Assembly: GCA_963705105.1 (NCBI GenBank) | Contig: CAVPIW010000006.1 | Span: 672,001-736,000, forward strand | Source: an uncultured Nitrospiraceae bacterium | GTDB lineage: Bacteria > Nitrospirota > Thermodesulfovibrionia > Thermodesulfovibrionales > Dissulfurispiraceae | Length of the DNA stretch: 64,000 nt | Direction of reading: 5' to 3' | The notes under the pieces: generated by a model | Seen by the model: the letters and a program-made list of their open reading frames with translations, nothing else | What the model was told of the DNA's origin: nothing | Databases searched by the model: none | Shown here: piece after piece, positions 4,250-42,701 of the stretch | Position numbering within the stretch: the stretch's first letter is position 1 | Layout of the letters: each line of letters begins with the position of its first letter | Translations under genes and position numbers: made by a program

Positions 4250-7200
4250 CTATTGCTTAGTATGGCACTTCGTGCCAATTAACTTCTTGGCTGAGTCATA
4301 CTTTGCCGTCCAGCGATTGCAATACTGATAGTCAGGGGAGAGGCCTAATACTGGCTCTTCGTTGATGCCCAGATATCTTTCTTCGATCTTGTTTCCAGCC
4401 GGGTCATACGCAAACTTCGTAATGTGTTGGTATCTGCCAAGAAGTCTTGCAGGCTTACCATCTGTTCCAAAATATCTTTTCTCGATAACTCGCCGCTGGC
4501 TGTCATACTTCTGTGTCATTCGAGCATAACCGATTAACTTATCGTACAAAGCGTTATCGTCTCCATAGCAAGCACGCTCTACTTGATTGCCGGCGGAGTC
4601 GTATTTATAGGTCTGGACCGCACAGCTACTGTTCGGAAGTATCTTCGGTCTGCCATCGCCTCCAAAGTAAGCTTCCTCTACGAGATTGCCGCGAGCATCA
4701 TATTTCATACTCATACGCGCATACCCATACTTCGCTTCCGAGGGCTTACTTTTATCATCAAATGCAGAGATTTCCGTGAGGTTCCCTCGATCATCGTATT
4801 TCTTCAATAAGCGTGAGTATTTCGATGCATTCATCACCGGCTGCCCCTCATCGTCAAAGGTCATTTGTTCCACGAGTTGCCTTCGACTATTAAATTTTTG
4901 TGTACATCGATGATATCTGTTCCCTGTCATAATGGGTTTGTTGTCATCTATTCCAAAATAGGCTATCTCCGTCTGATTGCCGTAACCATCGTACTTGGCT
5001 CTGTAACTCGCAAAACCCCATTCATTATTTTCTCCCTGCCATGGAATAAGAACTGGCTTTCTCTCGGTATTCAGATAGACCTGATAGCTCACTTTGCCTT
5101 TAACATCATATTTCATACGAGTTTCTGCATATCCCAGTACGCCTTGTGTAAGTTTCCCATTCGTATCAAAATAGGATTCGCTTGTCATTTGTCCCAATGG
5201 GTCGTACGTCCGTACGATCTTGGCAAATCCTTCGTTGCTATTAGTCAGTTTTCTATTTACAGCATAGTAGGCTATCTCCCGTTCCTTGCCTTGGGTGTTC
5301 CTTTTGATTTCAACTGTTGCGTATCTTGTTCGCTTATTCATAACTACCTTACCATCTAGCCCTTTGTAGGTAACTTCTGTTTCGTTTCCAAGATGATCAT
5401 ACTTATATCCGATCTTGTGGTATCCATCGCGATGGACAATGGGGCCTTCAGGACCAAAATATGCCTTCTCTATTGGACATCCTTCCTCCTTTAAACATCC
5501 CCGTTCGTCGTAAAGCCTCACTTCCCTATGGAACCCTTCATCCTTGTAGAAAGCCGGTTTGTCTTTAGCATCGTAAAACAATTGTTCAGTAACCCTCCCA
5601 AACGGGTCATACTTCTTGACGAGAAGTGCGTAGCCCTCTTCAGAGGTAACACGACTGTCATCAATGCCATAATATGATATTTCGATGGCTTTGCCCTGGT
5701 CGTTATAGCGTCGTTCGACTGAGTGGTAACCACCTTTTATGAACACTTTCTCAACATAGACCCCAAAGTAGGCGCTCTTCTTCTTGTTTCCGCGTAAGTC
5801 ATACTCGTGAATCGCACGCGCCCATCCGTCCTTATGCAAGACAGGCTCCCCATTAATGCCGAAATATGCCTCCTCAATAGGCTGATTTTGCGGATTAAAC
5901 TCTTTCTTCCAATAAGAATACCCGCCAGCTCTTTCATCTTGCCAAGGAACAAATGCTGGCTTGCTGTTGATATCCAAATATCGCAGATCTATAACATTTC
6001 CATGAGCATCATACTTCCTAGTCCAGCCCGCGTAGCCCTTTCGGTGCGTTACCGGACTTCCGTCTAATCCGAAGTACTTTTGCTCTATCTCATTGCCAAG
6101 AGGGTCATATTCGGATGTGTACCCTGCCACTCCGTCGCTTGATAACGTTTGCTCACCCCTTAAGCCTGTGTATGTGCGTCGCCTTTCGTTTCCTCTCTCA
6201 TCATACTCTGATTTCCAACCAGCATAGCCGTCATGCCCACGCATCGGTTTATCCATGACATTCAAATACACAGTCTCAATCTGGTTCCCGCTCGCATCAT
6301 GTTTTGCGGTCCATCCTGTGTATCCCTCAGTGCTTACGATTCGTTTACCATCGGGACCATAATAGCGAACTCTTACGACGTTGCCATAGTTATCAAATTC
6401 CTGTTCCCATCGCGAATAACCCTTGTTAGAAGCAACGGGCTCTCCCTTGATTCCGAAGTAGGTCGCGCCGATCAATTGTCCATGAACATCATAGCCTCCT
6501 GTCACCTGCGCATATCCTTCCTTGATTAAAGTCCGTGCGCCATCAGCCCCAAAATAGGAACTGTCTTCGAGTTTCCCGGAATCATTGTAACGGTACGTCG
6601 CCCGGGCATAGCCGTCCTTAAACTGCGTTAGTCTCCCTGCAGTATCATAGTAGGATGTTTCCACTAGTTTCTTTAGCCTGACGTCATATTTGCCTTTCCA
6701 GACGGCATAGCCATCCTTATTCGCTGTGAGCTTTTGATCGAGGCCAAAGCAACTCAGTTGGATAGGAAGATTGTCTTCGTCATAAGCCAAAACCAGGCTG
6801 TAGCACCCCCTATCGCCCACCGTAGGCTTATCCTCCATATCCAAGTACATCTCTTTGATGATGTTTCCCTGACCATCTCGTTTCCACTTAACTTTATGAT
6901 AGCCTTTTACGTTGAGTGTTTTTTTCCCATTCTCGTCAAAGTAACCCTCCTCAGTCATATTACCATTGTCGTCATATTCACTTCGTATGACCGAATAACC
7001 GCTCTTTAATGTAACTTTCTCTCCTAATGCATCTAAAGCCTCTTGTTTACGCGGGTTCCCAAAACCAAAGGGATCCAGATCCGTTACCTTTATAGTTGCA
7101 TTGCCGGCCTCGTCGTTCATATATTCATCATTTGGCCCCAATGATGTCTGTTCGAGCAATATTCCTTTCTTGTTGTAGCGCCTTAATTGCCCAAAAGCTT

Positions 7201-9550
7201 TATCGGGCCCACGTATGGCCTGATTGCCTCGATTCCGGTAGCGTCTGTATTCTTCGATGCCTTTCCCGGTATCTCTATATTCAATTTCTACATAACTCTC
7301 AGCGTACTGCTTATCCTTGCGAGGATAACCAGTGTCGTCTACAAAATATCCGGTTCGGACTCTCTCCCGCCCGCCTTCGGGAGGTAAATAGACAAATCCC
7401 CATATTCGCTTCCCTTTGTTATCAAGTGCTGTTTCATAAGAAACACGTTCTTGGGCATCGTAATTGAACTCCCAGGCAACCTCATTGGGTATTCGCTCTT
7501 CCGATGATTCGAGATAAGTGCCGATACGATGAATGGGGGTTAATTTTCCCTTGCTATTGACTGTTTCCATGCGAAGAACGGGACCCCATTTGCCTTTTCT
7601 TATGATTTTGATCGAGACAGGACGATGCTGGACCTGTGCGAGCGTCAATTCACCGACTCCTCTCGGCTCGCCTAAGAAAGGGCGATGCTTGACTTTTGCA
7701 AGAATCAATTCGCCGAACCCCTTCGGCTCACTATGGACCTTAACAAAAGAGCTGAAGTATTCGACATAGTCCCAATGCGTCAGATAGCGATGCAGAAGAA
7801 TGCCTACAATCAGCATCAACACCGCTGTGCCGAAACCCACGGCAAGCCGACGCATCATCTTAAGCTTTTCACGTTGTTCGGCCTCACGCTGCAGTGCCGC
7901 TTCCTTCTCCCGCTGCGCGCGATCAAGAGCTTCGGTGCTTGCCTGAACAAACTCCTTCTCGAGACGCGTGAGGTCTGCCTGCTTTCTTGCCTCTTCCAGC
8001 TGCCATTCCCTAAACAGACCATCCCAGTCTTTGGATTTTCCTTTTGCCTCCCATTGATGCGCCGCCTGAGTAAGGGAGAGGCGATCACGAAGGATGCGGC
8101 GTTTATCATCGATCCACCCTGCTAAGAGCGGCCAGTTGCGGACCAGTGACTCGTGCTTGATCTCGACCACATCGTCGGCACCACTGACGCCGGGCGTGAT
8201 GCGCAAGTAGTCGTTCTTCTTAAGCAGTTCAAGCACTTCCTCCGTGTTCGCCTTGCCAGCCTGCAGCAAGCGGCTTTTGGGCAATGGCTGGCGATAAGCC
8301 TCGAGCATCTCATCGACGCGTACCAACTCGAGGAGTATACGCTTGATCTCTGTCTGGGTTTGCTCTATTTGTGCGAGGTAGAAGGTATCGGCGGCGTTCT
8401 TGAGTGCCTCCAGGGGATCGCCTACTGTTCTGTAAACCTCCCAGGTGATTCGGTTTCGTTTGCGTTTCTCCCAAAGTGCGTGCAAGGTGAATTGTAACAA
8501 CGGAAGCGCCGCGGGCTGGCCGAGCACCTTCTTCACTAGGTCGTCTACAATTCCTGATTGGAACTGTAAGTTTACAAGGGCAGCAGGCTTCTCTACCGCC
8601 GCCGTTAATTCCTCATAACTCATTGGCCGCATCCAGTACCTTGAGGGGCTCAGTTCACGCAACTCATTGATCTTACTATCGAACTCAGCACGCACGGTCA
8701 GAATCACACGGTGGCCCCGAGCGGCATCCAATAGATGAGCGAGGTTTCTTACCAGTGCCTCACGGTCTGCGGGGTCGGACAGCGTGAACACTTCCTCGAA
8801 CTGGTCGATAGTGATCAGTGCAGTCACCGCGTTTTCTTCGCCAAGCATGGCATAAAGATATTTGGGATCCTGCCGAAGGCGTGTCACCTCCTCTGCGACG
8901 ATGCTGTTCGCGGCTGGGTGGGCTTGTCGAACAGCATTTACTAGGTTGTCGAGTACGGAATTACCCGGAACAAATGGCGGAATGACGAACAACTCAGGCA
9001 TCGCGCCTTTCTCCTTGAGCGCCGGCAGAATGCCCCCCATCACAAGGGAAGACTTCCCGCTACCAGACGCGCCAAGCACGACAACAAGCGGCTCTTGACG
9101 AAGTTTCGTCAGCAGCTCCTTTATGTCATCCTCTCGGCCGAAGAAGTTCGCCCGGTCGCGAAAGGCATCGAGGCCGACATAGGGACATAGCTTGTCCTTC
9201 AGGTCCGGCAGTTTCTCGCTGTCGAAGGGGGCCAGGTTTGCAGGCGGTACCACGATCCCCGCCCTAAACAGGCAGGAGACCCAATAGTCCAAAAGCACCT
9301 GGCAATCAGAGCGCTGAAGGATCTCTTCGATATAGACCCCTGTCGCTGCCCCACGTTCCAAGAATTGCCTGAGCTTTGGTTCAAGCCTCGCCAATGCGAC
9401 TGCTTCGCTCTTATCGGCTGCGTCTTTCTTAAGCTCAATACTCAAAGCTTTCATGAAGGCGGCGTGCTCATCCTGCAGCTCGGTCGCACTCTCGAAGGGC
9501 TCCACTCGGCGAAACTGGTCCGGATTTGACATATCTTCCCTTTCTAACAT
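4250..9550 (-). CDS. Membrane-anchored nSTAND1 (NLR-like) NTPase: N-terminal helical domain, STAND, coiled coil, TM helix, YD-like 32-aa repeat ectodomain
   Basis: CPYVGLDAF, FFGRE, Walker A GASGSGKSS, Walker B ITIDQFEE, LPLLQFTL, IKHESLVRNW; TM LAVGFGTAVLMLIVGILL; repeats of YDxxGNxxExxYxGxxGxP...GY. The true start may be 9532. Confidence 0.85.
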   Translation of the reverse strand: MLEREDMSNPDQFRRVEPFESATELQDEHAAFMKALSIELKKDAADKSEAVALARLEPKLRQFLERGAATGVYIEEILQRSDCQVLLDYWVSCLFRAGIVVPPANLAPFDSEKLPDLKDKLCPYVGLDAFRDRANFFGREDDIKELLTKLRQEPLVVVLGASGSGKSSLVMGGILPALKEKGAMPELFVIPPFVPGNSVLDNLVNAVRQAHPAANSIVAEEVTRLRQDPKYLYAMLGEENAVTALITIDQFEEVFTLSDPADREALVRNLAHLLDAARGHRVILTVRAEFDSKINELRELSPSRYWMRPMSYEELTAAVEKPAALVNLQFQSGIVDDLVKKVLGQPAALPLLQFTLHALWEKRKRNRITWEVYRTVGDPLEALKNAADTFYLAQIEQTQTEIKRILLELVRVDEMLEAYRQPLPKSRLLQAGKANTEEVLELLKKNDYLRITPGVSGADDVVEIKHESLVRNWPLLAGWIDDKRRILRDRLSLTQAAHQWEAKGKSKDWDGLFREWQLEEARKQADLTRLEKEFVQASTEALDRAQREKEAALQREAEQREKLKMMRRLAVGFGTAVLMLIVGILLHRYLTHWDYVEYFSSFVKVHSEPKGFGELILAKVKHRPFLGEPRGVGELTLAQVQHRPVSIKIIRKGKWGPVLRMETVNSKGKLTPIHRIGTYLESSEERIPNEVAWEFNYDAQERVSYETALDNKGKRIWGFVYLPPEGGRERVRTGYFVDDTGYPRKDKQYAESYVEIEYRDTGKGIEEYRRYRNRGNQAIRGPDKAFGQLRRYNKKGILLEQTSLGPNDEYMNDEAGNATIKVTDLDPFGFGNPRKQEALDALGEKVTLKSGYSVIRSEYDDNGNMTEEGYFDENGKKTLNVKGYHKVKWKRDGQGNIIKEMYLDMEDKPTVGDRGCYSLVLAYDEDNLPIQLSCFGLDQKLTANKDGYAVWKGKYDVRLKKLVETSYYDTAGRLTQFKDGYARATYRYNDSGKLEDSSYFGADGARTLIKEGYAQVTGGYDVHGQLIGATYFGIKGEPVASNKGYSRWEQEFDNYGNVVRVRYYGPDGKRIVSTEGYTGWTAKHDASGNQIETVYLNVMDKPMRGHDGYAGWKSEYDERGNERRRTYTGLRGEQTLSSDGVAGYTSEYDPLGNEIEQKYFGLDGSPVTHRKGYAGWTRKYDAHGNVIDLRYLDINSKPAFVPWQDERAGGYSYWKKEFNPQNQPIEEAYFGINGEPVLHKDGWARAIHEYDLRGNKKKSAYFGVYVEKVFIKGGYHSVERRYNDQGKAIEISYYGIDDSRVTSEEGYALLVKKYDPFGRVTEQLFYDAKDKPAFYKDEGFHREVRLYDERGCLKEEGCPIEKAYFGPEGPIVHRDGYHKIGYKYDHLGNETEVTYKGLDGKVVMNKRTRYATVEIKRNTQGKEREIAYYAVNRKLTNSNEGFAKIVRTYDPLGQMTSESYFDTNGKLTQGVLGYAETRMKYDVKGKVSYQVYLNTERKPVLIPWQGENNEWGFASYRAKYDGYGNQTEIAYFGIDDNKPIMTGNRYHRCTQKFNSRRQLVEQMTFDDEGQPVMNASKYSRLLKKYDDRGNLTEISAFDDKSKPSEAKYGYARMSMKYDARGNLVEEAYFGGDGRPKILPNSSCAVQTYKYDSAGNQVERACYGDDNALYDKLIGYARMTQKYDSQRRVIEKRYFGTDGKPARLLGRYQHITKFAYDPAGNKIEERYLGINEEPVLGLSPDYQYCNRWTAKYDSAKKLIGTKCHTKQ

Positions 9551-10668
9551 ACTCGCAAGAGAGTCTGTAACGGTTGGTTTAGTTCACTCAGCCGGTTGCA
9601 AAAATCCTTAAGTCTTCTGTCGGCTTCCCGGAACGCGGTACCCACAAACTGCGAGTAGTTCATGAGTAAGATCCTCGCCTGCTTCTTGTCATTATGATCT
9701 AGTGCTTCATCGATAACGATTTCCATCTGACTCAGCTTTTCCTTAAGATTGTCCATGTCTTTGTCTATGAAGGGTGGTATGAGCTCTGAAGCTGCCGTCT
9801 TGGTCAATTCCCACTCACAATCCAGCCCCCCCGGTGAGAGTTTATTTGCAAGCAGGGCGCGCAACCCATCATCTAGCCTCTGTAGTTGGCCATGCTCCCT
9901 GACTCGTCTCTCAAGATCTGCTCGCAACCCGTTCAGTGCATTTATGCTCTGAACAAACTGCACAAGTAAGACATCGTTCTCAGGATGCTCCACGGACAGA
10001 GTTTCCTTTACCGACTCTAATAGCTCCACAAGACGATTCAGCTTCAGCTCCTTTGCAGCGTTAGATATCATAGAATCGAGCCTCGGTGGAATTCTGGAAC
10101 GCAGCTGTTCGAGCCCAGTCTTCACCTTGTCTAAGATAGCAGTATTTTCGGGTGCATTCACAGCCTCTTGGAAGTCCGCTTCAATTAAATCGAGTCGCTT
10201 ACCAAGATCTGGAAAGGGGTCGGTCTCACGTCCCCTGATTGCCTCCTTGATCTGATGAGATTGTTGATCAAATTGAAATTGAAGCGGATCCAGCCAAATT
10301 CTGGTCCTCCTAAGTGCCTGCATTTGGCGAAGGATTTCGAATTCAATAGTATGCAAGGAATCATGAATGGTCTTCAAAAGTTGCATCTCACTGATTCGCT
10401 GTGCAGTATCCCGCATTTCTTGGGAGAGGGTTACCCCGTTGCATGCCGTTGGATCATTGGAAATCCGGTCTGTGAGCTGTTTGAGGCCTATCTTTACAGA
10501 GTCAAGTAAACCCGGAAAGTTGATAACTATCTTGTCGCCTCTCACCTCATCCCCATGGACGAGTTTGTCACGTCCTACAGAATCGCCGCCGACGCTGACA
10601 TTGTCCTTGAAGTACGCGCCACCGGCCTTTTGATCAGCCCCTGATTCCTTTCCGTCTTCAGTCGTCAT
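9544..10668 (-). CDS. Putative adaptor: N-terminal amyloid-like motif plus an all-alpha helical domain
   Basis: N-terminal GGAYFKDNVSVGGDSVGRDKLVHGDEVRGDKI is shared with the upstream caspase; the rest is Leu/Glu-rich and helical; its stop abuts the STAND start. Confidence 0.65.
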   Translation of the reverse strand: MTTEDGKESGADQKAGGAYFKDNVSVGGDSVGRDKLVHGDEVRGDKIVINFPGLLDSVKIGLKQLTDRISNDPTACNGVTLSQEMRDTAQRISEMQLLKTIHDSLHTIEFEILRQMQALRRTRIWLDPLQFQFDQQSHQIKEAIRGRETDPFPDLGKRLDLIEADFQEAVNAPENTAILDKVKTGLEQLRSRIPPRLDSMISNAAKELKLNRLVELLESVKETLSVEHPENDVLLVQFVQSINALNGLRADLERRVREHGQLQRLDDGLRALLANKLSPGGLDCEWELTKTAASELIPPFIDKDMDNLKEKLSQMEIVIDEALDHNDKKQARILLMNYSQFVGTAFREADRRLKDFCNRLSELNQPLQTLLRVC

Positions 10669-10752
10669 GGCAAACCTTACAAACCCTAAATAACCTCAAC
10701 TTGAGTCGTCAACGATCTCGACGATATATACACATACTTGGAACGTTTGAAC

Positions 10753-12162
10753 CTATTTCCCCTGAATCTTATCCAGCACGAATTTGGTGACCGGCCCGGC
10801 GATTCCACCCAGAATCGGGGAGGCAAAAATACTCGCAATACCACTCACTGCTTCTGGAACTAGGGCAATCAGTCCATCGATCAGCTTGCCCATCTTGTTA
10901 TCATCAGCTGCCTTCCCTTTTGCTACTTCCTGTTTTAGCTCCTCTACCTTCTTCAGAGCCTCTGTCTGATTGGCGGCGGGCACTTCCCGAATGGATGACA
11001 TCAACGGTTCGAACAATCTTTGAAGGTCCTGATCAGATATCCCTGTGGTGACGGTGGACCGGGCGCCCCGGCCGATGGCGATCCCCTGACCAGAAATGTC
11101 CCCCACCGTTATCCTGTCGCCTAGAATTTTATCGCCTCTCACCTCGTCTCCATGGACGACCTTGTCACGGCCTACAAAATCGCCGCCGACGCTGACAGCC
11201 CCCCCGATGTACGCACCGCCGCCAGTATCAATAGTGGTCACAGTACCTGCTTTTTCACCCTCAAGAGGTGCGAGCGGATCGGGTGCTGCCAAACCCTTCG
11301 CTATACCTTTGCCGCCCAGGAGCAATGCGATCGGGAAGTTCCCGCTTACCTGGTAATCCGGCTCCTGCGGCTGACCCCAGTCAGCTTTCACGCTTTCCGG
11401 TACGTTGCGCCACACATAACTCATCACGTCGGAGACTAACACCTCCTTGGCACCCTCTTCGGGCTGCGCATGGCCAGTCAGCGCTTCGATCAAGTGATAG
11501 GTAAAGATGCTCATCTTCCCGTCCTTGCGCATATAAGAAGGTTGTTCTCCCTGTGAGGAACTCAGCACAGCCCGACCTGCTCCTTTGGTCAGCACTTCCA
11601 AACCCTTAGCGCCTTCCTTTGGAGTTACTCCCTTGGCTGCTGACATGAATATTTGCGTTGGAATGGCAGATCGCTTGTAAGAAGCAATGCCTTTAATTCC
11701 CATGCCGCCGGAATGACAACAGTCAAGTACTACGAAGAGACGCTGTGGTTTAAGAGCATTAATGGCATCAGCGAAGTCCTCTGCCCTGAGAGCACTTGAT
11801 TTGAATGCCTCCTCGTCCACGTCGTACGGAATGAGAAAATACTGAGGCTGCTGGCCGTCGTCTCGGTCTCCATGTCCTGAGTAAAACACGATAGCCGTGG
11901 CATTTCCGCTTGCATCATCGTTAATCTTCTTCTTTAGTCGGGTTAGCCCTCCAAGGATATTCGCGCGAGTCGAATTCGACCCCAGGATGACTTCGACGTT
12001 TTTCTCAAGATAGGCACACCGCTCCGGATGGACAAGTACATTTTGCAGAGCCGTAACATCTTTTTCCACATCAGGAAGAGCCCATGTGGGATTGCTGTTT
12101 TCGTTAACTCCAATCAACAACGCATATCCACTAATGAATTGCTTTGCCATTTCCTCCTCCAC
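10753..12162 (-). CDS. Caspase-like peptidase C14 with a Gly-rich amyloid-like linker and a C-terminal helical domain
   Basis: ALLIGVN, FYSGHG (catalytic His), VVLDCCHSGG (catalytic Cys), SIFTYHLIEAL. Confidence 0.9.
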   Translation of the reverse strand: MEEEMAKQFISGYALLIGVNENSNPTWALPDVEKDVTALQNVLVHPERCAYLEKNVEVILGSNSTRANILGGLTRLKKKINDDASGNATAIVFYSGHGDRDDGQQPQYFLIPYDVDEEAFKSSALRAEDFADAINALKPQRLFVVLDCCHSGGMGIKGIASYKRSAIPTQIFMSAAKGVTPKEGAKGLEVLTKGAGRAVLSSSQGEQPSYMRKDGKMSIFTYHLIEALTGHAQPEEGAKEVLVSDVMSYVWRNVPESVKADWGQPQEPDYQVSGNFPIALLLGGKGIAKGLAAPDPLAPLEGEKAGTVTTIDTGGGAYIGGAVSVGGDFVGRDKVVHGDEVRGDKILGDRITVGDISGQGIAIGRGARSTVTTGISDQDLQRLFEPLMSSIREVPAANQTEALKKVEELKQEVAKGKAADDNKMGKLIDGLIALVPEAVSGIASIFASPILGGIAGPVTKFVLDKIQGK

Positions 12163-12281
12163 CTATGGTCGGTTCTGATAAAGAGTGAGACATCCAACAC
12201 GGTACAAGCGTTCCCCTTAGTCATCTCATTCGAGAACCTGTTGTACTAGAGTAGAGCTGATCGGCATTTCTCTTTGTTTGT

Positions 12282-13079
12282 TCAGAAGCCGGAGACCTTG
12301 ACAAAGGCGCTCTCACTGGCGAGCTGCCCCACTCTATCTGACTTTTTCTTCTTGATCCCTTTAATGGCCGCTGATCCTGTCTCCAGCGGCTCGTATGTCG
12401 TGTAGCGCCCCTGATCATAGAAAAGACGCACTGCCTGAAAGCCGAACACAAGCGGAATGGAGGACTCGTATGTCACCTTGGAGGTTACCGAGGATGCGCC
12501 TGAGGTTTTCACGTTCCCGCCCACGATGCCTTGAATCTCAGGGATGCTGACATCGAGCGCCGCTCCATTTGATTTCTTCGCTTCAACAGTGAACTTCGTC
12601 CCCTTGATGGTCGCCGTGGTGACATACAGTTCATCCGCTTCCAACAAGTCCGCGACGTAGCGGGAGAAAGGGCTCACATCAGCGTCTGCCAGGTACTGGT
12701 CAAGTTTGATAATCTCAACGCTGTCCTCGAACACATCCTGAAATTCGAACGCGGCTGTCTTTGCCTGCTCATACTTCATATCGAGCCCGAGTTTTGAGCC
12801 GCCCATCGCACCGATTATGCTGCCGAGGATCGACAAACCAACTCCTATGCTCAGGTCACCTGTGCGCTGACCCGAGATATCGGCAGTACGGGCATTCTGG
12901 ATGGCCGGCGGGGAAATATTCTTGCCGGCCACGAGGAGTGTTGTCAGATCGCCCAGGCGAGTGAGGTCCTTCCCGTTGCGGGATAACACTTGAAGCGGCT
13001 TGACATCTGCCTTGGGCAAACGAATCACATTATAGCCAAAAGACTTGAGATAGGTGAGGAATGGATCGTTGCAGAACAT
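12282..13079 (-). CDS. Bacterial gasdermin (bGSDM)
   Basis: 265 aa. N-terminus MFCNDPFLTYLKSFGYNVIRLP has the conserved Cys3; also LYVTT..IK...FTV, TY....PLVFGFQA and a short C-terminal peptide ending VKVSGF. Strong recalled similarity to the Vitiosangium and Runella gasdermins; flanked by caspases. Confidence 0.93.
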   Translation of the reverse strand: MFCNDPFLTYLKSFGYNVIRLPKADVKPLQVLSRNGKDLTRLGDLTTLLVAGKNISPPAIQNARTADISGQRTGDLSIGVGLSILGSIIGAMGGSKLGLDMKYEQAKTAAFEFQDVFEDSVEIIKLDQYLADADVSPFSRYVADLLEADELYVTTATIKGTKFTVEAKKSNGAALDVSIPEIQGIVGGNVKTSGASSVTSKVTYESSIPLVFGFQAVRLFYDQGRYTTYEPLETGSAAIKGIKKKKSDRVGQLASESAFVKVSGF

Positions 13080-13131
13080 TGTCTGACCTCCATATTAAAC
13101 GCGGTACCTGAGTTCCGCAAGATGGTTGTCG

Positions 13132-13184
13132 AGGTTGCCGACTTCTCCCTGCAGAATCCGGTAGAGGGCAGAAGCCGGCAACCT
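13132..13184. other. Intergenic hairpin upstream of gasdermin
   Basis: AGGTTGCCGACTTC...GAAGCCGGCAACCT inverted repeat; no U-tract. Confidence 0.55.
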
Positions 13185-13247
13185 TCACATCAAGTCATCA
13201 AAGTGACCCTTGTCAATATCGCCATTGCTCACTCAAGGCATCGCAGT

Positions 13248-14105
13248 CTACACAAAGCGGGCCTTCCTCTTGGTCGCCTCGCACTCCAGCTGAGGTATCT
13301 GGCTGTAATGACCGGCTTGAAGTCCTTTTCTGACCTGCTCGAGCACCTTTTTTCGGGAAAGCTTGTTTTTGCTGTCATTCATCACCTTGCAGAAGTGGTA
13401 GGTGAAGGCCCCGTGCCAGCCCCCAGCGATGTATGCATCAGCGCTGGTCTGATCAGACCGGCAGCCTGCCCAGAGGATGTGATGGATAATGCCTTTTTCG
13501 AGCATCGATTCATACAGTCCGCGGGATCGACGCCCCTCGACCATCTTGAAGGCTTCGTAGGAAGGGGGCGGCATCCATCGCGGTTTGCGGTCAGGCAGGA
13601 AATCAAGAGCTTTGATGCCCGTGCCGCTGTGGCAGGTATCAAGATAGACTTCCAGTAGGACGTTCGCCGGCAACTGGACGAAGAGATCATGCAATTCGTC
13701 ATCGACAATGATGTATTTCGGGTCCCAGATACTCCCGGCCGACGCCAGGTCATGGGGGCAGACGGCCTCGTCTGCTCTATCCGGCTCGTCCCCGCTCGTA
13801 TCCGGCACCTGGGTCCCGTGGCTGGACAGGCTGAAGACCAGGTAACTGTATTTCCCCTTCTTGGCCCCGTCTACCATTTCCTTGAGATTCTTCATGATGT
13901 TCGCTTTCGTGGCCTGGGTGTCTGTCAACTTGACGATATCTCCAGGGCCAAAACCGAGCCACTTCTTGAGCAGGGCTTCCATGTCATTGGCGTCATTCAC
14001 ACAACCCTGTAACGCGCTGCCGGGATAGTTTTTGAAGTTGTTGATCCCCACACACAGAGCTCTCTTTGCCATGATTTTCTCCTCCTTGTTCGTTTTCATG
14101 CTCAT
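13248..14105 (-). CDS. Metacaspase-like peptidase C14
   Basis: RALCVGIN, LQGCVNDA, SLSSHGTQVPD (His), YLDTCHSGT (Cys), DQTSADA, GAFTY. Confidence 0.92.
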   Translation of the reverse strand: MSMKTNKEEKIMAKRALCVGINNFKNYPGSALQGCVNDANDMEALLKKWLGFGPGDIVKLTDTQATKANIMKNLKEMVDGAKKGKYSYLVFSLSSHGTQVPDTSGDEPDRADEAVCPHDLASAGSIWDPKYIIVDDELHDLFVQLPANVLLEVYLDTCHSGTGIKALDFLPDRKPRWMPPPSYEAFKMVEGRRSRGLYESMLEKGIIHHILWAGCRSDQTSADAYIAGGWHGAFTYHFCKVMNDSKNKLSRKKVLEQVRKGLQAGHYSQIPQLECEATKRKARFV

Positions 14106-14120
14106 GACCTCCTTCTGAGA

Positions 14121-16217
14121 TCATTCCGTTACAATCCATATGGGGTTTGTTACGCACCGGAAAAGCCCCTCGCCCGTCTTGGGGTTTATGCGTGAAGCGG
14201 CCTCCATCCGCAGGTAGCAGGGACTCTCTGTCCATGCTGAAAATGTGTGTACGATGCTGCCATGGAAGCCGCTTTCTTTGTTCCCGAGAGTCGGGAGACC
14301 GATTTCATCGGTTATGTCTGTTTCGGCATCAGCAGTGCCCCGAAAGAGATGTATTCTTTCAATGGGCCCGAACTCCTCATTACTTTGCCATTCAATATGC
14401 AGGTCGAGACTTTCGCCGGGTGGAATAGTGAAAGTGTCGCCAAATCGGTACTCCTTCTCATCTCCTTTCTTGCGGAGGGAGAAAAACACAATGGGGCCAT
14501 CGCTCAGAAGGGCCCTGCCGGCTTTCAGAGCGCCGAGAAGATCAGCCTCAGTCAGCGCCTCGCCAGCCTCTTTCGGCAGATACGCCAGGGTGCGCACCTT
14601 GCCAAAGGCGTTGTCGTTGAGAGTGTGGATGAAGAACACAGGATGGGGGCGGAAGGCACAGTTGAAGTCCATATGGGCGTCTGAGCCGGCGAGGACAAAG
14701 TACTTCTTCAGTGTCTTTATCTGCGTATATTCCCGCAATGACGGCCGGAGAAAGTGCTCAACCCAGTGCTCACGGATTCCCGTGTCAAGATCATGCGACC
14801 AGGACTTCTTCTTGTCAGTCTTTTTGAACATCTCATAGGGATCGAGGTAGGGGCGGTCGATCGAGGAGTCGGTAGTACACTCCATGAGGATCTTTTCATT
14901 GAAGATCTGAAGACCACAGAACAGGTCTCTGTATCGGGGATTCATGACGACGGCATAATCCTCTTCGTGCCAGATGTACCCGTTTGAGGAGGGGTGAGCG
15001 GCATACAGGAATCCCTGTCGGGGCTGCGGACTCAGTAGTATCCGTTCAAAAACCTCTGCCATCGTCAGGGTTCCGAATCCCGCGATGTGCGTGTCCTCGA
15101 TGAAGGGATTATCGTAAGAAAGGACATGCAGGCCGGCAAAGTATTTCCTCACGGTGACCTCTTCGGCGGCGACCAAGAGGACATCGGGATATCGTATGTT
15201 TGTATCAGCCACTGCCTTCTTGTAAGAAGACCAGCGGTTTCCCTGCTCTTCTTCCTCGTCGGTCTTCGTGTGGCCAAGGCAATAGGAATGGTCGGTCACT
15301 GTCACCCAGGCAAGACCCGTTGCTCTGGCTACCTCGGCACTCATCGGCAGGGGGCTGCCGTACTCGTAAGGGTTGTCGGTAAAGTCAGAGTGGAAATGCG
15401 TGTCACCATACAGCCATCCGTCAACCCGGGGTAGATCGTATTCAGAGACAAGAGTGCGGAGGACGATCTGCTTACTCCTGTCGATTCCGAGAAAGCCTTC
15501 AAATGTGATGATGACGCAATAATGGAGGTAACGGGCCTTTCCATACGCGGGATGGGTCCAGTCGACGGGCGTGAAACATTTCCTGTCGAGATGAATGATC
15601 CTGTACCAGGGATCGGTGTTGACCGTCTCGTAATCCTCGCCTTCGTCGAACCTCAGGGGAGCAGGCATGCCGTTTTCCTCGACCTCTGCACCTTTGGTGT
15701 CAAGCACCTTCACTATACTGCCGGGAGGAAGCGACTGCGGCGTGCCTCCCGATGACGACGTCCAATGATTGAAGGCGATGGATCGGATTCTGATCTTTAC
15801 GGGACCAACGTCTTTAAGGTATACAATCACAGGGACATAAGGGCAGCTCTTTTCAAGCCGGTAGGGCGCGTCGACCACGAGATCCATGGCAGGCGTATTC
15901 GGCTGTTTTGCGGCTGCTCTCTTTTCAAATTTGTGTTCTACTTTGTCCTTGTCCAGCTCTATTGTTTGGCCCTTGACGATAGGACGTCCGGTGTCGGCAT
16001 CTATGACCTTGAGCGTATAGGTGCCCCTTGGAATGCCTTCAATCTCGACGTAATATGTGCCATTATCTTTCTTTAGCTTGGTGTAGTCCTCCAGGGCGGT
16101 TCGAATCACTTTCCTGGATCTCTCTCGCTTGAGCTCGATGATCACCGGCTGCCAAAAGCGACCCATTTCATGGTCACCGATGTCGAAAGCAACCCGTATT
16201 GTTCCTCTATCTCCCAT
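14121..16217 (-). CDS. PHP-fold (CehA/McbA-like) metallohydrolase with N-terminal beta domains
   Basis: GDTHFHS, VTDHS, YAAHP, AGSDAH and TNPIW motifs; RBS AGGAGG. Confidence 0.75.
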   Translation of the reverse strand: MGDRGTIRVAFDIGDHEMGRFWQPVIIELKRERSRKVIRTALEDYTKLKKDNGTYYVEIEGIPRGTYTLKVIDADTGRPIVKGQTIELDKDKVEHKFEKRAAAKQPNTPAMDLVVDAPYRLEKSCPYVPVIVYLKDVGPVKIRIRSIAFNHWTSSSGGTPQSLPPGSIVKVLDTKGAEVEENGMPAPLRFDEGEDYETVNTDPWYRIIHLDRKCFTPVDWTHPAYGKARYLHYCVIITFEGFLGIDRSKQIVLRTLVSEYDLPRVDGWLYGDTHFHSDFTDNPYEYGSPLPMSAEVARATGLAWVTVTDHSYCLGHTKTDEEEEQGNRWSSYKKAVADTNIRYPDVLLVAAEEVTVRKYFAGLHVLSYDNPFIEDTHIAGFGTLTMAEVFERILLSPQPRQGFLYAAHPSSNGYIWHEEDYAVVMNPRYRDLFCGLQIFNEKILMECTTDSSIDRPYLDPYEMFKKTDKKKSWSHDLDTGIREHWVEHFLRPSLREYTQIKTLKKYFVLAGSDAHMDFNCAFRPHPVFFIHTLNDNAFGKVRTLAYLPKEAGEALTEADLLGALKAGRALLSDGPIVFFSLRKKGDEKEYRFGDTFTIPPGESLDLHIEWQSNEEFGPIERIHLFRGTADAETDITDEIGLPTLGNKESGFHGSIVHTFSAWTESPCYLRMEAASRINPKTGEGLFRCVTNPIWIVTE

Positions 16218-16289
16218 GTCTCCTCCTAAAGGCTATACCCCGCAGTCAAAAAGGTTCCGGCAAAAAGGCCGAGCCCACTGAACGCGTCT

Positions 16290-16376
16290 ATCCTTCGGCA
16301 GCTCTGCCACCTTATCGTTACATAAGACCCGCCGCTTTCCGTCGCACCCTCGCAGATGGGTTCTTCTTCGTGATTC
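16290..16376 (-). ncRNA. GEMM-I (c-di-GMP-I / 3',3'-cGAMP) riboswitch-like aptamer
   Basis: Minus strand CACGAAGAAGAACCCATCT-GCGA-GGGTGCGACGGAAAGCGGCGGGTCTTAT-GTAACG-ATAAGGTGGCAGAGCTGCCGAA gives a GNRA-capped P2, the GACGGAAAGC junction, a paired P3 (GCGGC/GCTGC and GTCTTAT/ATAAGGT) and a 3' TGCCGAA. The P2 base is imperfect. Confidence 0.7.
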
Positions 16377-16917: not shown

Positions 16918-17424
16918 CCGCACCTGTTATCTCTGCATCTTCCTGATTATTTCGCCCAGCTTCTTGATTTCTTCTCCGTATAACGCCCAGTTCCCCTCCC
17001 TTTGGGCATTCATAGCGCGGTCATAATGCTCCCTGGCATTCGAAGCGAGATTCTTTTCATCCTTCACAGCAGGAAGCTGCAGGGACTTCAAAGGCGCCGC
17101 CTCTTCCGAGACCCTGACATCGCCGAATATCCTCGAAAGCGCGGCATCGAGCGTCTCCTCCATGGCGATGCGGTTTTCGTATGCGACGACGACCCTTTTG
17201 AGTTCCGGTATCTTGCCCTTGTCCGCCCTGAGGTAAAGCGGCTGAACATATATCAGGGAATTTTCGATCGGTATAACCAGCAGGGTCCCCTGCATCACCT
17301 GTGAGCCGCGCTGGTCCCAGAGAGATACCTGCCTTGATATCTCGGTATCCTGATTGATTCTGGCGACTATCTGTTTCGGCCCGTACACGAGCCTGTCCTT
17401 CGGAAAACGGTATTACGAGCTTCC
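16918..17424 (-). pseudogene. Duplicated 3' end of the UPF0182 gene
   Basis: Near-identical direct repeat of 19044-19552 with scattered substitutions (ends IIRKMQR versus IIKKMQK). Confidence 0.9.
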
Positions 17425-34385: not shown

Positions 34386-34772
34386 ACCTTATCGTTGCAT
34401 TCGCCTTCTGGAAAGGCGGGGTGAAGATGCCACTGAAAAAGTCACTAAGTCATTAAGTTATTGAGTCATTGAGTCATTATCGGCAGTCGGAACAACGCAG
34501 GGAGCACTCGGGCGGGAAGGCTGAAGTGGTGAAAAGCCTTTCCGCTAAGATACCTCATTCTTCCCCAGACAAGCGATTGCCGTCGCTATCGATACCACAA
34601 GCCCGTCAGCCAACAGGCGCTGAACACCTTGAGATGTCTCATCATCGCATTGGAAAGGCTTTGAACCATATTTGCCTTCCCGGAGACCGCGTAGATATAA
34701 GAACTATTCCTTTCACTGACACTCACACTGTTTCAGATCGCTTCGCCCCGCCTTTTCATGCAACTGTGAGGC
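34386..34772 (+). mobile_element. MITE-like element, copy 4 (long subtype)
   Basis: Same termini as the other copies; ~300 bp interior with five 8-bp (A/G)AGT(C/T)A(C/T)T tandem units; inverted twin at 45877-46269. Confidence 0.85.
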
Positions 34773-40700: not shown

Positions 40701-42701
40701 GTGAAAGGACTGCAGCTTCCGGACCTCACGGATGAGGCCGGCGCAGGCCCCGCTCATGAATTGCCCGCGTTCCAGACAGGCCCGCTCATCCAGAGGCACC
40801 CCGCCTGGCCTGTCCATGCCTCGGGCCGCAGCGAAGAGGCTCCCCGCGGCCATCTCCTCCATTCTCGTCCGGAAGGAGGGCTCGTCCTGGTGGCCCGCTG
40901 CAAACTCCCTCTCCAGGGATAAAATAGCTTCCACTCTCGGGGTCCTCAAGGACCGCACCCGAAGTCCGGTGTCCTGGCCTGAAACGACTGTTCCCCCCGG
41001 AGGCGATTCCAGAATCATCCGCTGATAGAGCGCCGTCAAGGCGCCTGTTTCAACGATCTCCTGGGTGGCCAGATAGGCGGTGCCCATCTGGATGGCGTCC
41101 GCGCCGAGCATGGCGGCCATGAATGCGGTCTCCCGATTGAAGATTCCCCCTGCAAGGATCACGCGACAGTTTTGGAACAGGGATGGCTTGCGCCGTTTCA
41201 GATCCAACACCATTTGAGCAAGGGTGAGTGTGCTATGCTGCCCCACGTGGCCGCCGGCCTCATACCCCTCGCAGACCACGTACCGGACGCCCGCTTCAAG
41301 GGCGAGCCTCAACAGGGCCTCATCAGGAGCGATATACATGACCCCTATGCCGCATTCTATCAATTCTCTTAAGGGGGAGAGATCGCCGCCTGCGATCACG
41401 ACAAAACGGGGTCTCTGTTTCTTTATCCAGGCCAGATGCGTCTCCCTGAAAGGGTTCTCTGCCAAAGAGACGACATTCACCGCATAAGGGCGCCCTCCCA
41501 TGATCTCCGGCAGGCGTCCCAGCCTCCGGTCAAGGGCCTCCGCGTCCATCAGGCCAAGGGCGATGGTGGGCAATCCACCGGCATCGGCAACTCTTGAGGC
41601 AAACTCCGGGACATCTGTGATCCAGGACATGGCCCCCTGGATAAAGGGATATTTAGTTCCCATCTCTCTGGCTACAGGGCTGTCCAAAAAGCAATCCTTT
41701 TTCGCCTCAGCCAGGCGGCATAGGTTTCGAATCTCGCCCATGAAGGCTTTCACGGCCTCCTCGGTTCCGGCCCCAAAACGCTCAACGAACGACGCAGCAA
41801 AGGCAGCTTCCACGCCCAGAGGGATGACCTCGTCCTGACTGAAATGGCTCTCCAGAGGGTGGAGGGCCCTGGCATGCACCTGGCTTACGAAGGAGCGGCG
41901 GCTTTCGTCCGTGATCTCTGCTCCGCACAGCGAGTCCTCGAGCGTCTTGATCTCCTTGAACGCCAGCGAGTTTCCCTTGTTGAAAAGGCGACAGGGAACC
42001 TGCAGGTCCAGGCCGACCAGATCGGTAGAATCCAGGCGGAGCTTGGAGAGCCGCTGGCGTTGAACATCATCAATGGCAACCAGATCTGTCAGCCAATGGA
42101 CGCTCTCGAAAACGATCCCGGTGGCCCCGGTGGACAGGAATGCCGCTGCCGCCTCAGGGGTGGAGACGCCTCCCCAGATGAGGATATCGAGAGGCTTCGA
42201 GGGTGTGCGCAGCATTTCCTTGACCACCGAATAGAGAGCCATGGTCGTCTCACCGCTCACGAATCCGGAGGCCTCGCATCCTTTCAGGACGATGCGCCCG
42301 ATACCCGAGTTATCCTTCAAAATCGCTGCCAGGAGATCCATGTCACCGATGATCGGAAAGCAACGGTGGTTTTCCGACAATTCCCTCAATCTCTGAAGAA
42401 AGATGGAAGAATCTCCTTGAAAAAACTGGGGATGGCATTCTACCCAGATGTCATGGACCCCTGTTTCTTTCAGTAACTGCCCCAAAGATGGATCCATCAA
42501 GGCAGGGACAGAAATCTTGATATCCCTGACGTGGCCGGCAGGGTCGGCCTTTCGTAAGAAAGAACGCAACCCTTCCACCCCCATCATGGAAAAATCGAAG
42601 ATGGCTCTGCTCCCTGTTCGCTGAGCCATTTGAATCACCGATGGGATAATCTCCTCAGGCCGCCAGACGAAACCGATGATAGAAACCCGATGCTCAGCCA
42701 C
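34773..42701 (-). CDS. Pfa-like iterative type I PKS/FAS: N-terminal FMN enoyl reductase (NMO/PfaD-like), KS, AT, ACP, KR, DH; split by several frameshifts
   Basis: ER: EAGGH, AIQMGT. KS: SAACATS, ECHATST, GHTLGASG. AT: FPGQG, GHSLG, AFHS. ACP: DLSIRSSR. KR: SGGATGI, NYAAAN. DH: DHRPF...P. The fragments are colinear. Confidence 0.82.

Follow-up and report, generated by a model that had tools for sequence, protein, structure and literature searches.

Bacterial gasdermins (bGSDMs) carry an N-terminal cysteine (C3/C4) that serves as a palmitoylation site, and adjacent caspase-like proteases activate them by removing a short C-terminal peptide (bioRxiv 10.1101/2021.06.07.447441). As described by Johnson et al. 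(10.1101/2021.06.07.447441), the adjoining proteases are of the Peptidase_C14 or CHAT type, some bGSDMs adjoin more than 1 protease, and sensing domains such as NACHT, TPR, LRR, and WD40 are fused to the protease. In the Lysobacter-type system, a gasdermin, 2 proteases, and a STAND (NLR-like) ATPase share 1 operon (bioRxiv 10.1101/2023.05.28.542683). According to the same account, the proteases are trypsin-like, gasdermin cleavage depends on a non-catalytic recruitment element of the protease, namely a six-helix CARD-like domain, and 1 of the 2 proteases is dispensable. In the gasdermin systems covered by this literature, sensor and protease are either fused or connected through a CARD-like domain that the protease carries.

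Work on other systems supplies 2 further elements: NTPases anchored in a membrane and small coupling domains. Kaur et al. (eLife 2020 PMC7159879, 2021 PMC8195603) catalogue nSTAND1 NTPases with a transmembrane (TM) segment, repeats, and an upstream effector gene, and state the principle that effectors are coupled to the core by a small domain that both partners share. Supplementary file 1 of PMC8195603 holds “nSTAND1+TM” 461 times, including a row “nSTAND1+TM+RHS+RHS+PDZ,” and the word “Gasdermin” does not occur in it. Motifs of about 25 to 33 aa on adjacent receptor- and effector-side genes are described for BASS (Dyrka et al., 10.1101/2020.01.06.895854) and Bab/Agp (10.1101/2024.11.07.622273). 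Finally, in EACC1 caspase systems, a neighboring small protein is cleaved site-specifically (bioRxiv 10.1101/2025.11.14.688446). Gasdermin with protease and STAND, nSTAND1 with membrane helix, and coupling via effector-associated domains (EADs) are thus all known in print.

Here, we analyze a gene cluster that brings these elements together. The window, meaning the whole stretch of DNA analyzed, is 64,000 nt long. We think it somewhat more probable than otherwise, judging from sequence comparison, that the cluster encodes a system of regulated cell death, probably of the abortive-infection type, in which sensor, adaptor, protease, and pore act in turn. We read the adaptor wiring as a variant on known gasdermin and nSTAND1 systems, with component kinds that are already known.

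Organization of the gene cluster

The cluster consists of 6 co-oriented open reading frames (ORFs) on the minus strand, spanning positions 4250–16217 (Table 1). From 5′ to 3′ along that strand, they encode a PHP-like hydrolase, a standalone caspase, a gasdermin, a caspase with a TCAD2-like tail, a helical adaptor, and an nSTAND1 NTPase; the genes are separated by 15, 168, 119, and 84 nt, and the last 2 overlap by 7 nt. A preliminary description had listed 6 co-oriented genes in this order, and all 6 ORFs were recovered. The upstream edge it had placed at 16376 moves to 16217, where the first gene begins, with an AGGAGG ribosome-binding site before the ATG. Promoter and terminator consensus scans returned 7 and 10 sites, respectively, versus 12.3 and 12.7 expected from shuffled sequence; since these counts are not above chance, such scans do not define an operon and say nothing on co-transcription. 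The neighbors of the cluster in the window are housekeeping genes, not a defense island. The cluster itself is a mosaic, in that its component proteins differ in their closest relatives. No CARD or Death-like Pfam match was found on any of the 6 proteins.

Table 1. Features of the cluster, with positions in the window and the evidence for each.
Feature	Position	Strand	Evidence
PHP/CehA-McbA-like metallohydrolase, 698 aa, first in row	14121..16217	-	sub-threshold profile matches
Standalone caspase-like protease, 285 aa	13248..14105	-	Peptidase_C14 8.2e-30
Bacterial gasdermin, 265 aa	12282..13079	-	PADLOC bGSDM 1.9e-87
Caspase-like protease with motif linker and TCAD2-like tail, 469 aa	10753..12162	-	Peptidase_C14 2.9e-18
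Shared motif, caspase copy, residues 314-346	11125..11223	-	BLASTP vs adaptor N-terminus
TCAD2-like helical tail of caspase, residues 377-469	10756..11034	-	likeness to L037 protein
Adaptor, 374 aa: N-terminal motif, then constant all-helical domain	9544..10668	-	family search, AF2
Shared motif, adaptor copy, residues 15-47	10528..10626	-	BLASTP vs caspase
nSTAND1 NTPase, 1766 aa, 7-nt overlap with adaptor gene	4250..9550	-	nSTAND1 3e-88
NTPase N-terminal domain, ~120 aa, proposed adaptor docking site	9185..9550	-	family comparison
Predicted single transmembrane helix, residues 566-591	7778..7855	-	Kyte-Doolittle 19-residue mean 2.31
YD/RHS-like repeat region, residues 620-1766, presumed sensor	4253..7693	-	RHS_repeat 2.9e-7, YD_repeat_2x 2.6e-5

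The gasdermin and its flanking genes

The 265-aa ORF is firmly assigned as a bGSDM by profile and structure-sequence comparison. Beyond the PADLOC match, it scores 220 bits against NCBIfam prok_gasdermin (cut-off 100) and matches the solved bGSDM chains 7n51 (3.7e-45, residues 2–230 aligned) and 8sl0 (4.9e-45). The protein starts MFC, and this Cys3 aligns with the cysteine of 7n51; both the gasdermin identity and Cys3 had been proposed earlier, and both hold. About 35 residues extend past the core aligned to the solved structure, with no large C-terminal domain. Like the proteins of Johnson et al. (10.1101/2021.06.07.447441), it thus has an N-terminal Cys, a short C-terminal extension, and adjoining Peptidase_C14 proteases, for caspase genes flank it on both sides. 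Gasdermins above cut-off occur in 3 of 401 genomes in a sample of the phylum.

The 2 caspases announced by the preliminary description both match PF00656 (Peptidase C14). We read SHG at residue 95 with CHSG at residue 158 in the standalone caspase, and GHG at residue 96 with CCHSG at residue 148 in the 469-aa caspase, as their His/Cys dyad motifs. Across the family of the 469-aa caspase, H97 never varies, and C148 and C149 hardly do.

The 469-aa caspase has 965 relatives at E<=1e-5, and most among the 120 matches listed cover 96%–100% of its length; the closest metagenomic relatives (P0285 and P0286) reach 80%–83% identity. In its AF2 model, the catalytic domain is confident, residues 300–370 have a pLDDT of about 46–54 and no secondary structure, and a helical tail occupies residues 377–468. 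The last 179 aa of the caspase and a 155-aa protein of another locus, L037, align over their full lengths (E 5e-11); the tail of the L037 protein matches Pfam TCAD2 at 2.4e-6, and PF19971 appears in 36 of the 120 matches listed for the caspase. The caspase's own tail has no TCAD2 match in Pfam even at E<=5. A literature search for “ternary complex associated domain” found nothing, and neither TCAD1 nor TCAD2 is mentioned in the main text or 2 supplements of PMC7159879. TCAD1 does appear in the supplement of PMC8195603, where it may or may not denote the motif region. An EACC1-caspase two-gene system was considered for this protease and rejected: caspase_w_EACC1 gives 92 bits, below the cut-off of 140, and gaps of 84–168 nt are too small for the gene of the small EACC1 membrane protein, which in that system lies just upstream of the caspase.

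The first 2 genes lie in the same row, but no link between them and the system emerged. The standalone caspase has 3 paralogues (1e-43 to 1e-45) within a protease island on contig C13, and no homologue of it was found in 2 related gasdermin loci (L056 and L057). The proposed two-caspase cascade receives no comparative support, as the first of these loci has 1 caspase, of the downstream type. The 698-aa ORF matches NCBIfam CehA_McbA_metalo at 1.2e-17 (64 bits, under the cut-off of 80), weakly matches PHP, and has no Pfam family. In the phylum sample, the protein is present in 1 of 401 genomes, the window's own, which also encodes, on contig C14, a paralogue of 57% identity that has neither caspase nor gasdermin nearby; no PHP homologue was found at L056 or L057. 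With this paralogue and these loci, the place given to the hydrolase in the system becomes doubtful.

A predicted membrane-spanning nSTAND1 NTPase

The NTPase is the sole nSTAND1 match above the Pfam cut-off in the whole genome (residues 123–507, 297.5 bits, cut-off 27.1). GASGSGKS at residue 160 and DQFEE at residue 249 fall in columns that are invariant across 33 sequences, and we read them as intact Walker A and Walker B motifs. The single hydrophobic segment is flanked on its N-side by the basic stretch KLKMMRR; from hydropathy and flanking charge, the repeats are predicted to lie outside the cytoplasm and the NTPase inside. At least 1 such segment is present in 96 of 119 relatives; 89 have exactly 1, located between NTPase and repeats. 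The repeat region runs for about 1150 aa to the C-terminus. It has 358 relatives at E<=1e-5, many of which are nSTAND1, TIR, or kinase proteins, and it is 68% identical to P0166, a metagenomic relative of the NTPase. A STAND receptor with membrane helix and repeats, as first described, is therefore what the sequence predicts. The architecture, with a single predicted TM helix between NTPase and repeats, matches the nSTAND1+TM+repeat type catalogued in PMC8195603; the predicted helix sets the locus apart from the Lysobacter-type ATPase as described (10.1101/2023.05.28.542683). If the sensor does face outward as predicted, one may ask which signal beyond the cytoplasm a cell-death receptor would register.

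The N-terminal domain of the NTPase tracks the presence of the adaptor. Every STAND encoded after a helical-domain gene has it (13 of 13, E 2e-10 to 1e-36), and it is 47%–57% identical to its counterparts in STANDs paired with TIR adaptors. It is absent from 18 of the 19 closest relatives by repeat region, which have PYxGL at residues 5–30; in the remaining 1, the PYxGL pattern was not found.

The adaptor and its family

The adaptor has no Pfam, NCBIfam, or meaningful PADLOC family. Its AF2 model (pLDDT 85.8) has helices at residues 54–373, and residues 1–43 fall under pLDDT 50. A Foldseek search of the model against PDB gave no match at E<=0.001 (best 0.12). A wide VIA search gave IpaD (Z 12.9) and many generic helical bundles; as this falls in the range usual for helical proteins, we leave the fold unnamed. 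Direct sequence comparison found no similarity between adaptor and NTPase.

The family is more informative. There are 360 representatives at E<=1e-3, and the helical domain is C-terminal in every one. The N-terminal slot of 103 relatives holds an effector in 66 (TIR 46, CHAT 13, DUF4062 5, Metallophos 1, and trypsin 1), a known EAD in 14 (EAD1 5, EAD7 7, EAD8 1, and EAD10 1), and no family in 23. Downstream DNA could be read at 40 loci; at 35 of them an nSTAND1 gene comes immediately after the helical-domain gene, and in 21 of these 35 pairs the genes overlap by 4 nt. By these comparisons, the helical domain is an unnamed family and a regular partner of 1 nSTAND1 clade; it was not found named in the part of PMC8195603 supplementary file 1 that we drew on. 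An adaptor role fits this architecture of a constant nSTAND1 partner with an N-terminal slot for effectors or EADs. Searches of the 401 sampled genomes of the phylum recovered the adaptor itself in 1, and its closest metagenomic relative, the fragment P0013, is 63% identical. Among 46 related adaptor loci, many on short contigs, no ORF encodes a gasdermin, and a caspase occurs in 1.

A motif shared by caspase and adaptor

A motif of 33 aa is common to the 469-aa caspase and the adaptor: residues 314–346 of the former match residues 15–47 of the latter at BLASTP E 5e-15, with 26 of 32 positions identical. A genome-wide search with the adaptor recovered, besides the adaptor, the caspase motif and nothing else. 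The caspase copy is internal (residues 314–346 of 469) rather than at the protein end, and the amyloid nature that the preliminary description gave the motif finds no support here. Against Pfam at E<=5, the motif regions gave no EAD, TCAD, or other meaningful match, which distinguishes them from the couplers of Kaur et al. Nevertheless, the pair follows the pattern of EAD coupling, in which the same small element sits on a core component and on a nearby effector.

The motif is conserved throughout the large caspase-TCAD2 family and is not specific to the adaptor-caspase pair: it was recovered at E<1 in 107 of the 120 relatives listed for the 469-aa caspase. The adaptor motif is 81% identical to that of the neighboring caspase, and 81% and 78% identical to those of the unlinked relatives P0285 and P0287. 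Since the neighbor's copy is no nearer than the unlinked ones, there is no locus-specific co-evolution.

The arrangement recalls BASS and Bab/Agp, with several differences. BASS motifs occupy the N-terminus of the NLR and the C-terminus of the effector, and their composition is described as poor in Lys, Pro, and Leu (10.1101/2020.01.06.895854). In this cluster, an adaptor bears the copy on the receptor side, the copy on the effector side lies within the protein, and several Lys and Arg occur in the motif, which departs from the BASS rule. The trypsin-like proteases of the Lysobacter-type system, with their six-helix CARD-like domain, correspond here to caspase-like proteases and a 33-aa motif predicted to be disordered. 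No separate adaptor gene was found in the part of that account consulted (10.1101/2023.05.28.542683), whereas here a separate adaptor carries the motif. Sensing domains fused to the protease by Johnson et al.'s description (10.1101/2021.06.07.447441) are replaced by 3 separate proteins. A free-standing adaptor between receptor and caspase, which would correspond to the ASC-like tier of an inflammasome and is the one tier lacking there, was not found in those portions of the bacterial gasdermin literature that our search covered.

Both copies are predicted to be disordered in the monomers (AF2: adaptor residues 1–43 and caspase residues 300–370). Disorder of this kind, if the models are right, would permit a cross-beta reading of the motif.

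A related locus with a different coupler

The genome G396 (locus L056), which belongs to the same taxonomic order as the window's genome, keeps the same gene order: a gasdermin 86% identical to ours, then a caspase, then an nSTAND1 protein. Its caspase carries a C-terminal TIR, and the N-terminal region of its nSTAND1 protein resembles that TIR (28% identity, E 9e-13); the coupling slot is thus held by a different homotypic pair. The 2 loci are alike in the gasdermin order, in a coupling element on both the caspase and the receptor side, and in a strongly hydrophobic segment of the nSTAND1 protein (KD 2.87 at residue 615 in G396). They differ in that G396 has 3 genes and no adaptor, a TIR coupler, and a WD40 sensor. 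The caspase domains beside these 86% identical gasdermins are only 28% identical, which leaves a conserved protease-substrate pair without support. What recurs in G396 is the gasdermin-caspase-nSTAND1 order; the full six-gene set was not recovered elsewhere among the 401 genomes of the phylum sample or the 46 adaptor loci. The combination had been thought undescribed: the exact set was not found in the literature searched, and its building principles are already in print.

Proposed mechanism and alternatives

In the mechanism we favor, an inner-membrane nSTAND1 NTPase, with a cytoplasmic NTPase module and outward YD-like repeats, would detect a signal. The signal would trigger NTP-driven oligomerization and thereby cluster the N-terminal domain of about 120 aa; that domain may hold the adaptor, the product of the overlapping gene upstream, by its constant helical domain. 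The flexible N-terminal 33-aa motif of the adaptor would then pair with its counterpart in the 469-aa caspase, located in the linker from the catalytic domain to the TCAD2-like tail, and this protease would be concentrated and activated. Once active, it could cut off the C-terminal inhibitory peptide of the gasdermin, leading to membrane pores. Such wiring would closely resemble that of an animal inflammasome. Of the receptor-adaptor-protease-pore cascade outlined in the preliminary description, the parts are found and the adaptor role fits by comparison; a role for the PHP hydrolase and the two-caspase step are not supported.

The motif could instead be a recognition or processing site, such that the caspase cuts its own linker, freeing the TCAD2 tail, and the adaptor N-terminus, with the adaptor as substrate or pseudo-substrate regulator. 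Arg and Lys abound in the motif, metacaspases and paracaspases are described as cleaving after arginine or lysine (10.1101/2021.06.07.447441), and EACC1-type caspases cut a neighboring small protein at a specific site (10.1101/2025.11.14.688446). Conservation across the family rather than within the pair is also in keeping with a cleavage site, and both copies lie in segments predicted to be disordered and hence accessible. Against this, 2 other proteins begin with the motif, an nSTAND1-propeller protein and the caspase-less 155-aa TCAD2 protein, at loci where no caspase was found, and the homotypic EAD1, 7, 8, and 10 occupy the same slot in adaptor relatives; we judge processing to be an unlikely role. 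An equally improbable arrangement is that of 2 independent systems side by side: a gasdermin-protease module (genes 2 to 4, perhaps with the hydrolase) and an adaptor-nSTAND1 pair with another output. It draws on the mosaic nature of the cluster, on the adaptor-nSTAND1 pairs without gasdermin in 46 of 46 related loci, and on the report that gasdermin-protease pairs can be toxic alone (10.1101/2021.06.07.447441). Yet the adaptor itself lacks an effector domain, the sole feature of its N-terminus is the adjacent caspase's motif, found nowhere else in the genome, and G396 keeps the gasdermin, caspase, and nSTAND1 order together with a matching pair of coupling domains.

The same wiring might also serve a purpose other than phage defense, with envelope damage, contact with a competitor or predator, or kin recognition leading to altruistic lysis or developmental death. 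A sensor predicted outside the cytoplasm agrees with this idea, as the phage proteins sensed by characterized STAND defenses would not be encountered there; so do the housekeeping neighbors in the window, with no defense island, and the described enrichment of such systems in bacteria of multicellular habit (PMC7159879). The characterized bacterial gasdermin and STAND systems are described as phage defense (10.1101/2023.05.28.542683), however, and we give this alternative the smallest chance of those considered. More ambitious is an elaboration of the favored mechanism, speculative and rather unlikely as a whole, namely a bacterial counterpart of the complete inflammasome, in which the disordered motif of an ASC-like adaptor would nucleate a templated cross-beta assembly with the caspase motif and so turn on the gasdermin pore. 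The receptor would be NLR-like, membrane-spanning, and outward-sensing, and the helical domain would define a widespread adaptor family (360 representative clusters) that plugs TIR, CHAT, phosphoesterase, and motif-recruited effectors onto 1 nSTAND1 clade.

Coupling elements at other loci

Two 86% identical gasdermins with different couplers, a TIR pair in one case and a motif with adaptor in the other, offer a natural comparison that makes recruitment testable. Motif pairs in neighboring genes also occur at loci L011 (E 2.9e-16) and L037 (by eye). At L022, an EAD10-like motif, seen by eye only, is common to a caspase and its adaptor, and at L021, an EAD10-like N-terminus is present in 5 neighboring ORFs.

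Organization of the gasdermin gene cluster

The six-gene feature is real and coherent. All six co-oriented genes named in the preliminary description are present as minus-strand open reading frames (ORFs). From the first to the fifth they are separated by 15, 168, 119, and 84 nt, and the fifth and sixth overlap by 7 nt. The right-hand limit had been placed at 16376, which is 159 nt too far, since the start of the first gene, preceded by an AGGAGG, is at 16217. Consensus scans for promoters and terminators yield no more sites than in shuffled sequence.

Coordinates of the gasdermin cluster and of the related system in G396, a genome of the same order
Feature	Length	Coordinates	Strand	Source
PHP-like hydrolase	698 aa	16217-14121	-	ORF listing
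Standalone caspase	285 aa	14105-13248	-	ORF listing
Gasdermin	265 aa	13079-12282	-	ORF listing
Caspase	469 aa	12162-10753	-	ORF listing
Helical protein (adaptor)	374 aa	10668-9544	-	ORF listing
nSTAND1 NTPase	1766 aa	9550-4250	-	ORF listing
G396 three-gene gasdermin system (gasdermin, caspase-TIR, TIR-like nSTAND1-WD40)		4249-10393 of L056 (G396:C12:19500-39499)

The gasdermin assignment agrees with both profiles and structures: PADLOC bGSDM (1.9e-87), NCBIfam prok_gasdermin (220 bits, cut-off 100), and the solved bGSDM chains 7n51 and 8sl0, which match residues 2-230 at about 4e-45. The protein begins MFC, and its cysteine aligns with the N-terminal cysteine reported as palmitoylated in bGSDM (bioRxiv 10.1101/2021.06.07.447441). 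Homology and this published work together identify the protein as a gasdermin, which would be activated when a protease removes a peptide.

Proteases and hydrolase

Both caspases match Peptidase_C14, with the His and Cys motifs intact. The 469-aa caspase has 965 relatives at E<=1e-5, a large family that shares its full-length architecture. By our count, Pfam TCAD2 is found in 36 of 120 listed relatives, and the string "CASPASE+TCAD1+TCAD2" occurs in the supplement of PMC8195603. AlphaFold predicts a confident protease domain, a stretch without secondary structure at residues 300-370 (pLDDT about 46-54), and a helical tail at 377-468.

The other two enzymes had been counted as parts of the system, and the evidence does not bear this out. 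The hydrolase has only sub-threshold matches to CehA/McbA and PHP. Its paralogue in the same genome (57% identical; contig C14, L060, 9766-12000) lies next to zinc metallopeptidase and TylF-like methyltransferase genes, with no caspase or gasdermin nearby, and no counterpart was found in the gasdermin loci of G396 or of G181, a genome of the same family. The standalone caspase is one of a four-copy family in its genome, the other copies lying beside papain-like and CHAT peptidases, and it too lacks a counterpart next to the G396 and G181 gasdermins; the proposed two-caspase cascade is therefore a guess. Paralogues of this caspase populate a protease island on contig C13 of the same genome (L070, 1-15126), where a unit of glutaredoxin-like protein (128 aa), standalone caspase (271 aa), and papain C1 peptidase (332 aa) is present twice, along with an IS3-type transposase pair, a third caspase (280 aa), and a CHAT protein (492 aa).

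A probable free-standing adaptor family and its NTPase partner

The putative adaptor of 374 aa matches no Pfam, NCBIfam, or PADLOC family, and no specific solved relative of its helical fold was found. An AlphaFold model (mean pLDDT 85.8) places helices at residues 54-373 and gives residues 1-43 a pLDDT below 50. An exhaustive profile search recovers 360 representative relatives in which the helical domain is always C-terminal and the N-terminus is variable. Pfam scanning of the first 103 of 149 listed relatives assigns this N-terminal slot to TIR (46/103), CHAT (13/103), DUF4062 (5/103), Metallophos (1/103), trypsin (1/103), or the effector-associated domains EAD1 (5/103), EAD7 (7/103), EAD8 (1/103), and EAD10 (1/103). 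The remaining 23/103 match no family, and some of them carry short Gly/Asp/Val-rich motifs resembling that of the window's adaptor.

The adaptor loci recovered (7 genome, 39 metagenome) contain 44 helical-domain ORFs. An nSTAND1 gene lies directly downstream in 35 of the 40 with readable downstream DNA, with a 4-nt overlap in 21 of these 35. The exceptions are L009, L027, L030, L012, and L011; at L009 the ORF call for the NTPase simply used an upstream start, and at L011 a methyltransferase gene is inserted. In L011 (6416-15153), a gene for an Eco57I-type DNA methyltransferase, together with a 282-aa ORF, separates a motif-bearing adaptor gene from its nSTAND1 gene.

The window's NTPase matches nSTAND1 at 3e-88 and contains GASGSGKS and DQFEE. 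A single strongly hydrophobic segment spans residues 566-591, preceded by KLKMMRR, and RHS/YD-type repeats extend to the C-terminal end; exactly one hydrophobic segment is found in 89 of 119 relatives. Residues 1-122 of this protein have a related domain of about 110 aa at the N-terminus of every NTPase that follows a helical-domain gene (13 of 13). When the 19 nearest relatives are picked by their repeat region, 18 lack this domain, since they start only 5-30 residues before the NTPase motif; the motif pattern was not found in 1/19.

Judged by sequence relatedness, the gene cluster is a mosaic. NTPases that pair with TIR-helical proteins in other phyla are the nearest relatives of both the N-terminal domain (47-57% identity) and the NTPase module (57-66%), and for the membrane and repeat part the nearest is the related protein P0166 (68%).

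The motif shared by adaptor and caspase

Residues 314-346 of the 469-aa caspase align with adaptor residues 15-47 (E 5e-15; 26 of 32 positions identical). With the adaptor as query, the whole 4.2-Mb genome returns only the protein itself and this caspase stretch. The motif is a family-wide linker feature, matched in 107 of 120 listed caspase relatives, and several of those copies are as close to the adaptor as is the neighboring caspase's copy. Paired motifs in neighboring genes recur at three loci: at L037 a 155-aa motif-plus-TCAD2 protein adjoins a motif-bearing adaptor, at L011 the motif stands at the N-terminus of an upstream nSTAND1-propeller protein, and at L022 an EAD10-like motif is common to caspase and adaptor, by eye only, short-BLAST giving no match for it. 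In the dense islands L021 and L022, several neighboring ORFs repeat an EAD10-like N-terminus; at L022 NACHT proteins are among them, and Pfam EAD10 matches the adaptor that belongs to an nSTAND1 gene.

The adaptor had been described as carrying an amyloid motif, and an amyloid nature is not supported: the motif differs in position and composition from the bacterial amyloid signaling motifs (BASS) as described in 10.1101/2020.01.06.895854. AlphaFold confidence is low for both copies, and the caspase copy falls within the stretch predicted to lack secondary structure. Coupling of adaptor to caspase is the reading we favor; the motif might instead be a cleavage site, which we consider less likely.

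Proposed wiring and related gasdermin loci

The signal would pass from sensor to adaptor to caspase to gasdermin. The adaptor-NTPase link is suggested by gene pairing and by co-occurrence of the putative docking domain, and the adaptor-caspase link by the shared motif and by the effectors and adaptor domains that occupy the same slot in relatives. That the sensor faces outward is predicted from the hydrophobic segment, from the charge beside it, and from its conservation in relatives.

A gasdermin scores over the cut-off in 3 of 401 genomes of the phylum sample. That of G396 is 86% identical to the window's; next in the row come a caspase that ends in a TIR domain and an nSTAND1-WD40 protein, which has a hydrophobic segment (KD 2.87) and an N-terminus resembling the TIR region of the caspase (E 9e-13). 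The row keeps the gene order of the window, and its caspase and NTPase carry coupling elements that match each other, but it has no adaptor; at the level of sequence, the locus supports the proposed wiring independently. A gene for a patatin-like phospholipase is nearby (L056, 2355-3623). In G181, genes for a calcineurin-like phosphoesterase and then a C92 papain-like peptidase come after the gasdermin (L057, G181:C11:1-18000, 4346-6875); a 736-aa ORF at 12092-14302 has RRXRR, HNH, and Cas9-RuvC matches and looks IscB- or small-Cas9-like.

Several elements are already in print: the combination of a gasdermin, a protease, and a STAND ATPase, with a recruitment domain (10.1101/2023.05.28.542683), nSTAND1 proteins that carry a membrane helix and are encoded behind an effector gene (PMC8195603 supplement), and the principle of coupling through effector-associated domains (PMC7159879, PMC8195603). 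"Gasdermin" has 0 occurrences in the supplementary file of PMC8195603, and the portions of the nSTAND1 literature covered contain no link to gasdermin. No system joining a bacterial gasdermin to an amyloid was found among titles and abstract openings; bioRxiv supplements may list such operons. Of most use here are the family of free-standing adaptors and the natural comparison that the G396 locus offers.

Other observations in the window

A 153-aa ORF (16927-17388), which may be a remnant, has a weak match confined to the final 23 positions of UPF0182; a complete UPF0182 gene lies 1.7 kb away (19053-21752). At 34756-42701 (-), several ORFs that partly overlap hold the ketosynthase, acyltransferase, KR, and dehydratase parts of a polyketide- or PUFA-synthase-like gene, which could reflect a split gene, a frameshifted gene, or assembly errors. 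A 424-aa protein (62318-63592) has ice-binding-like, DUF7933, and DUF11 domains.
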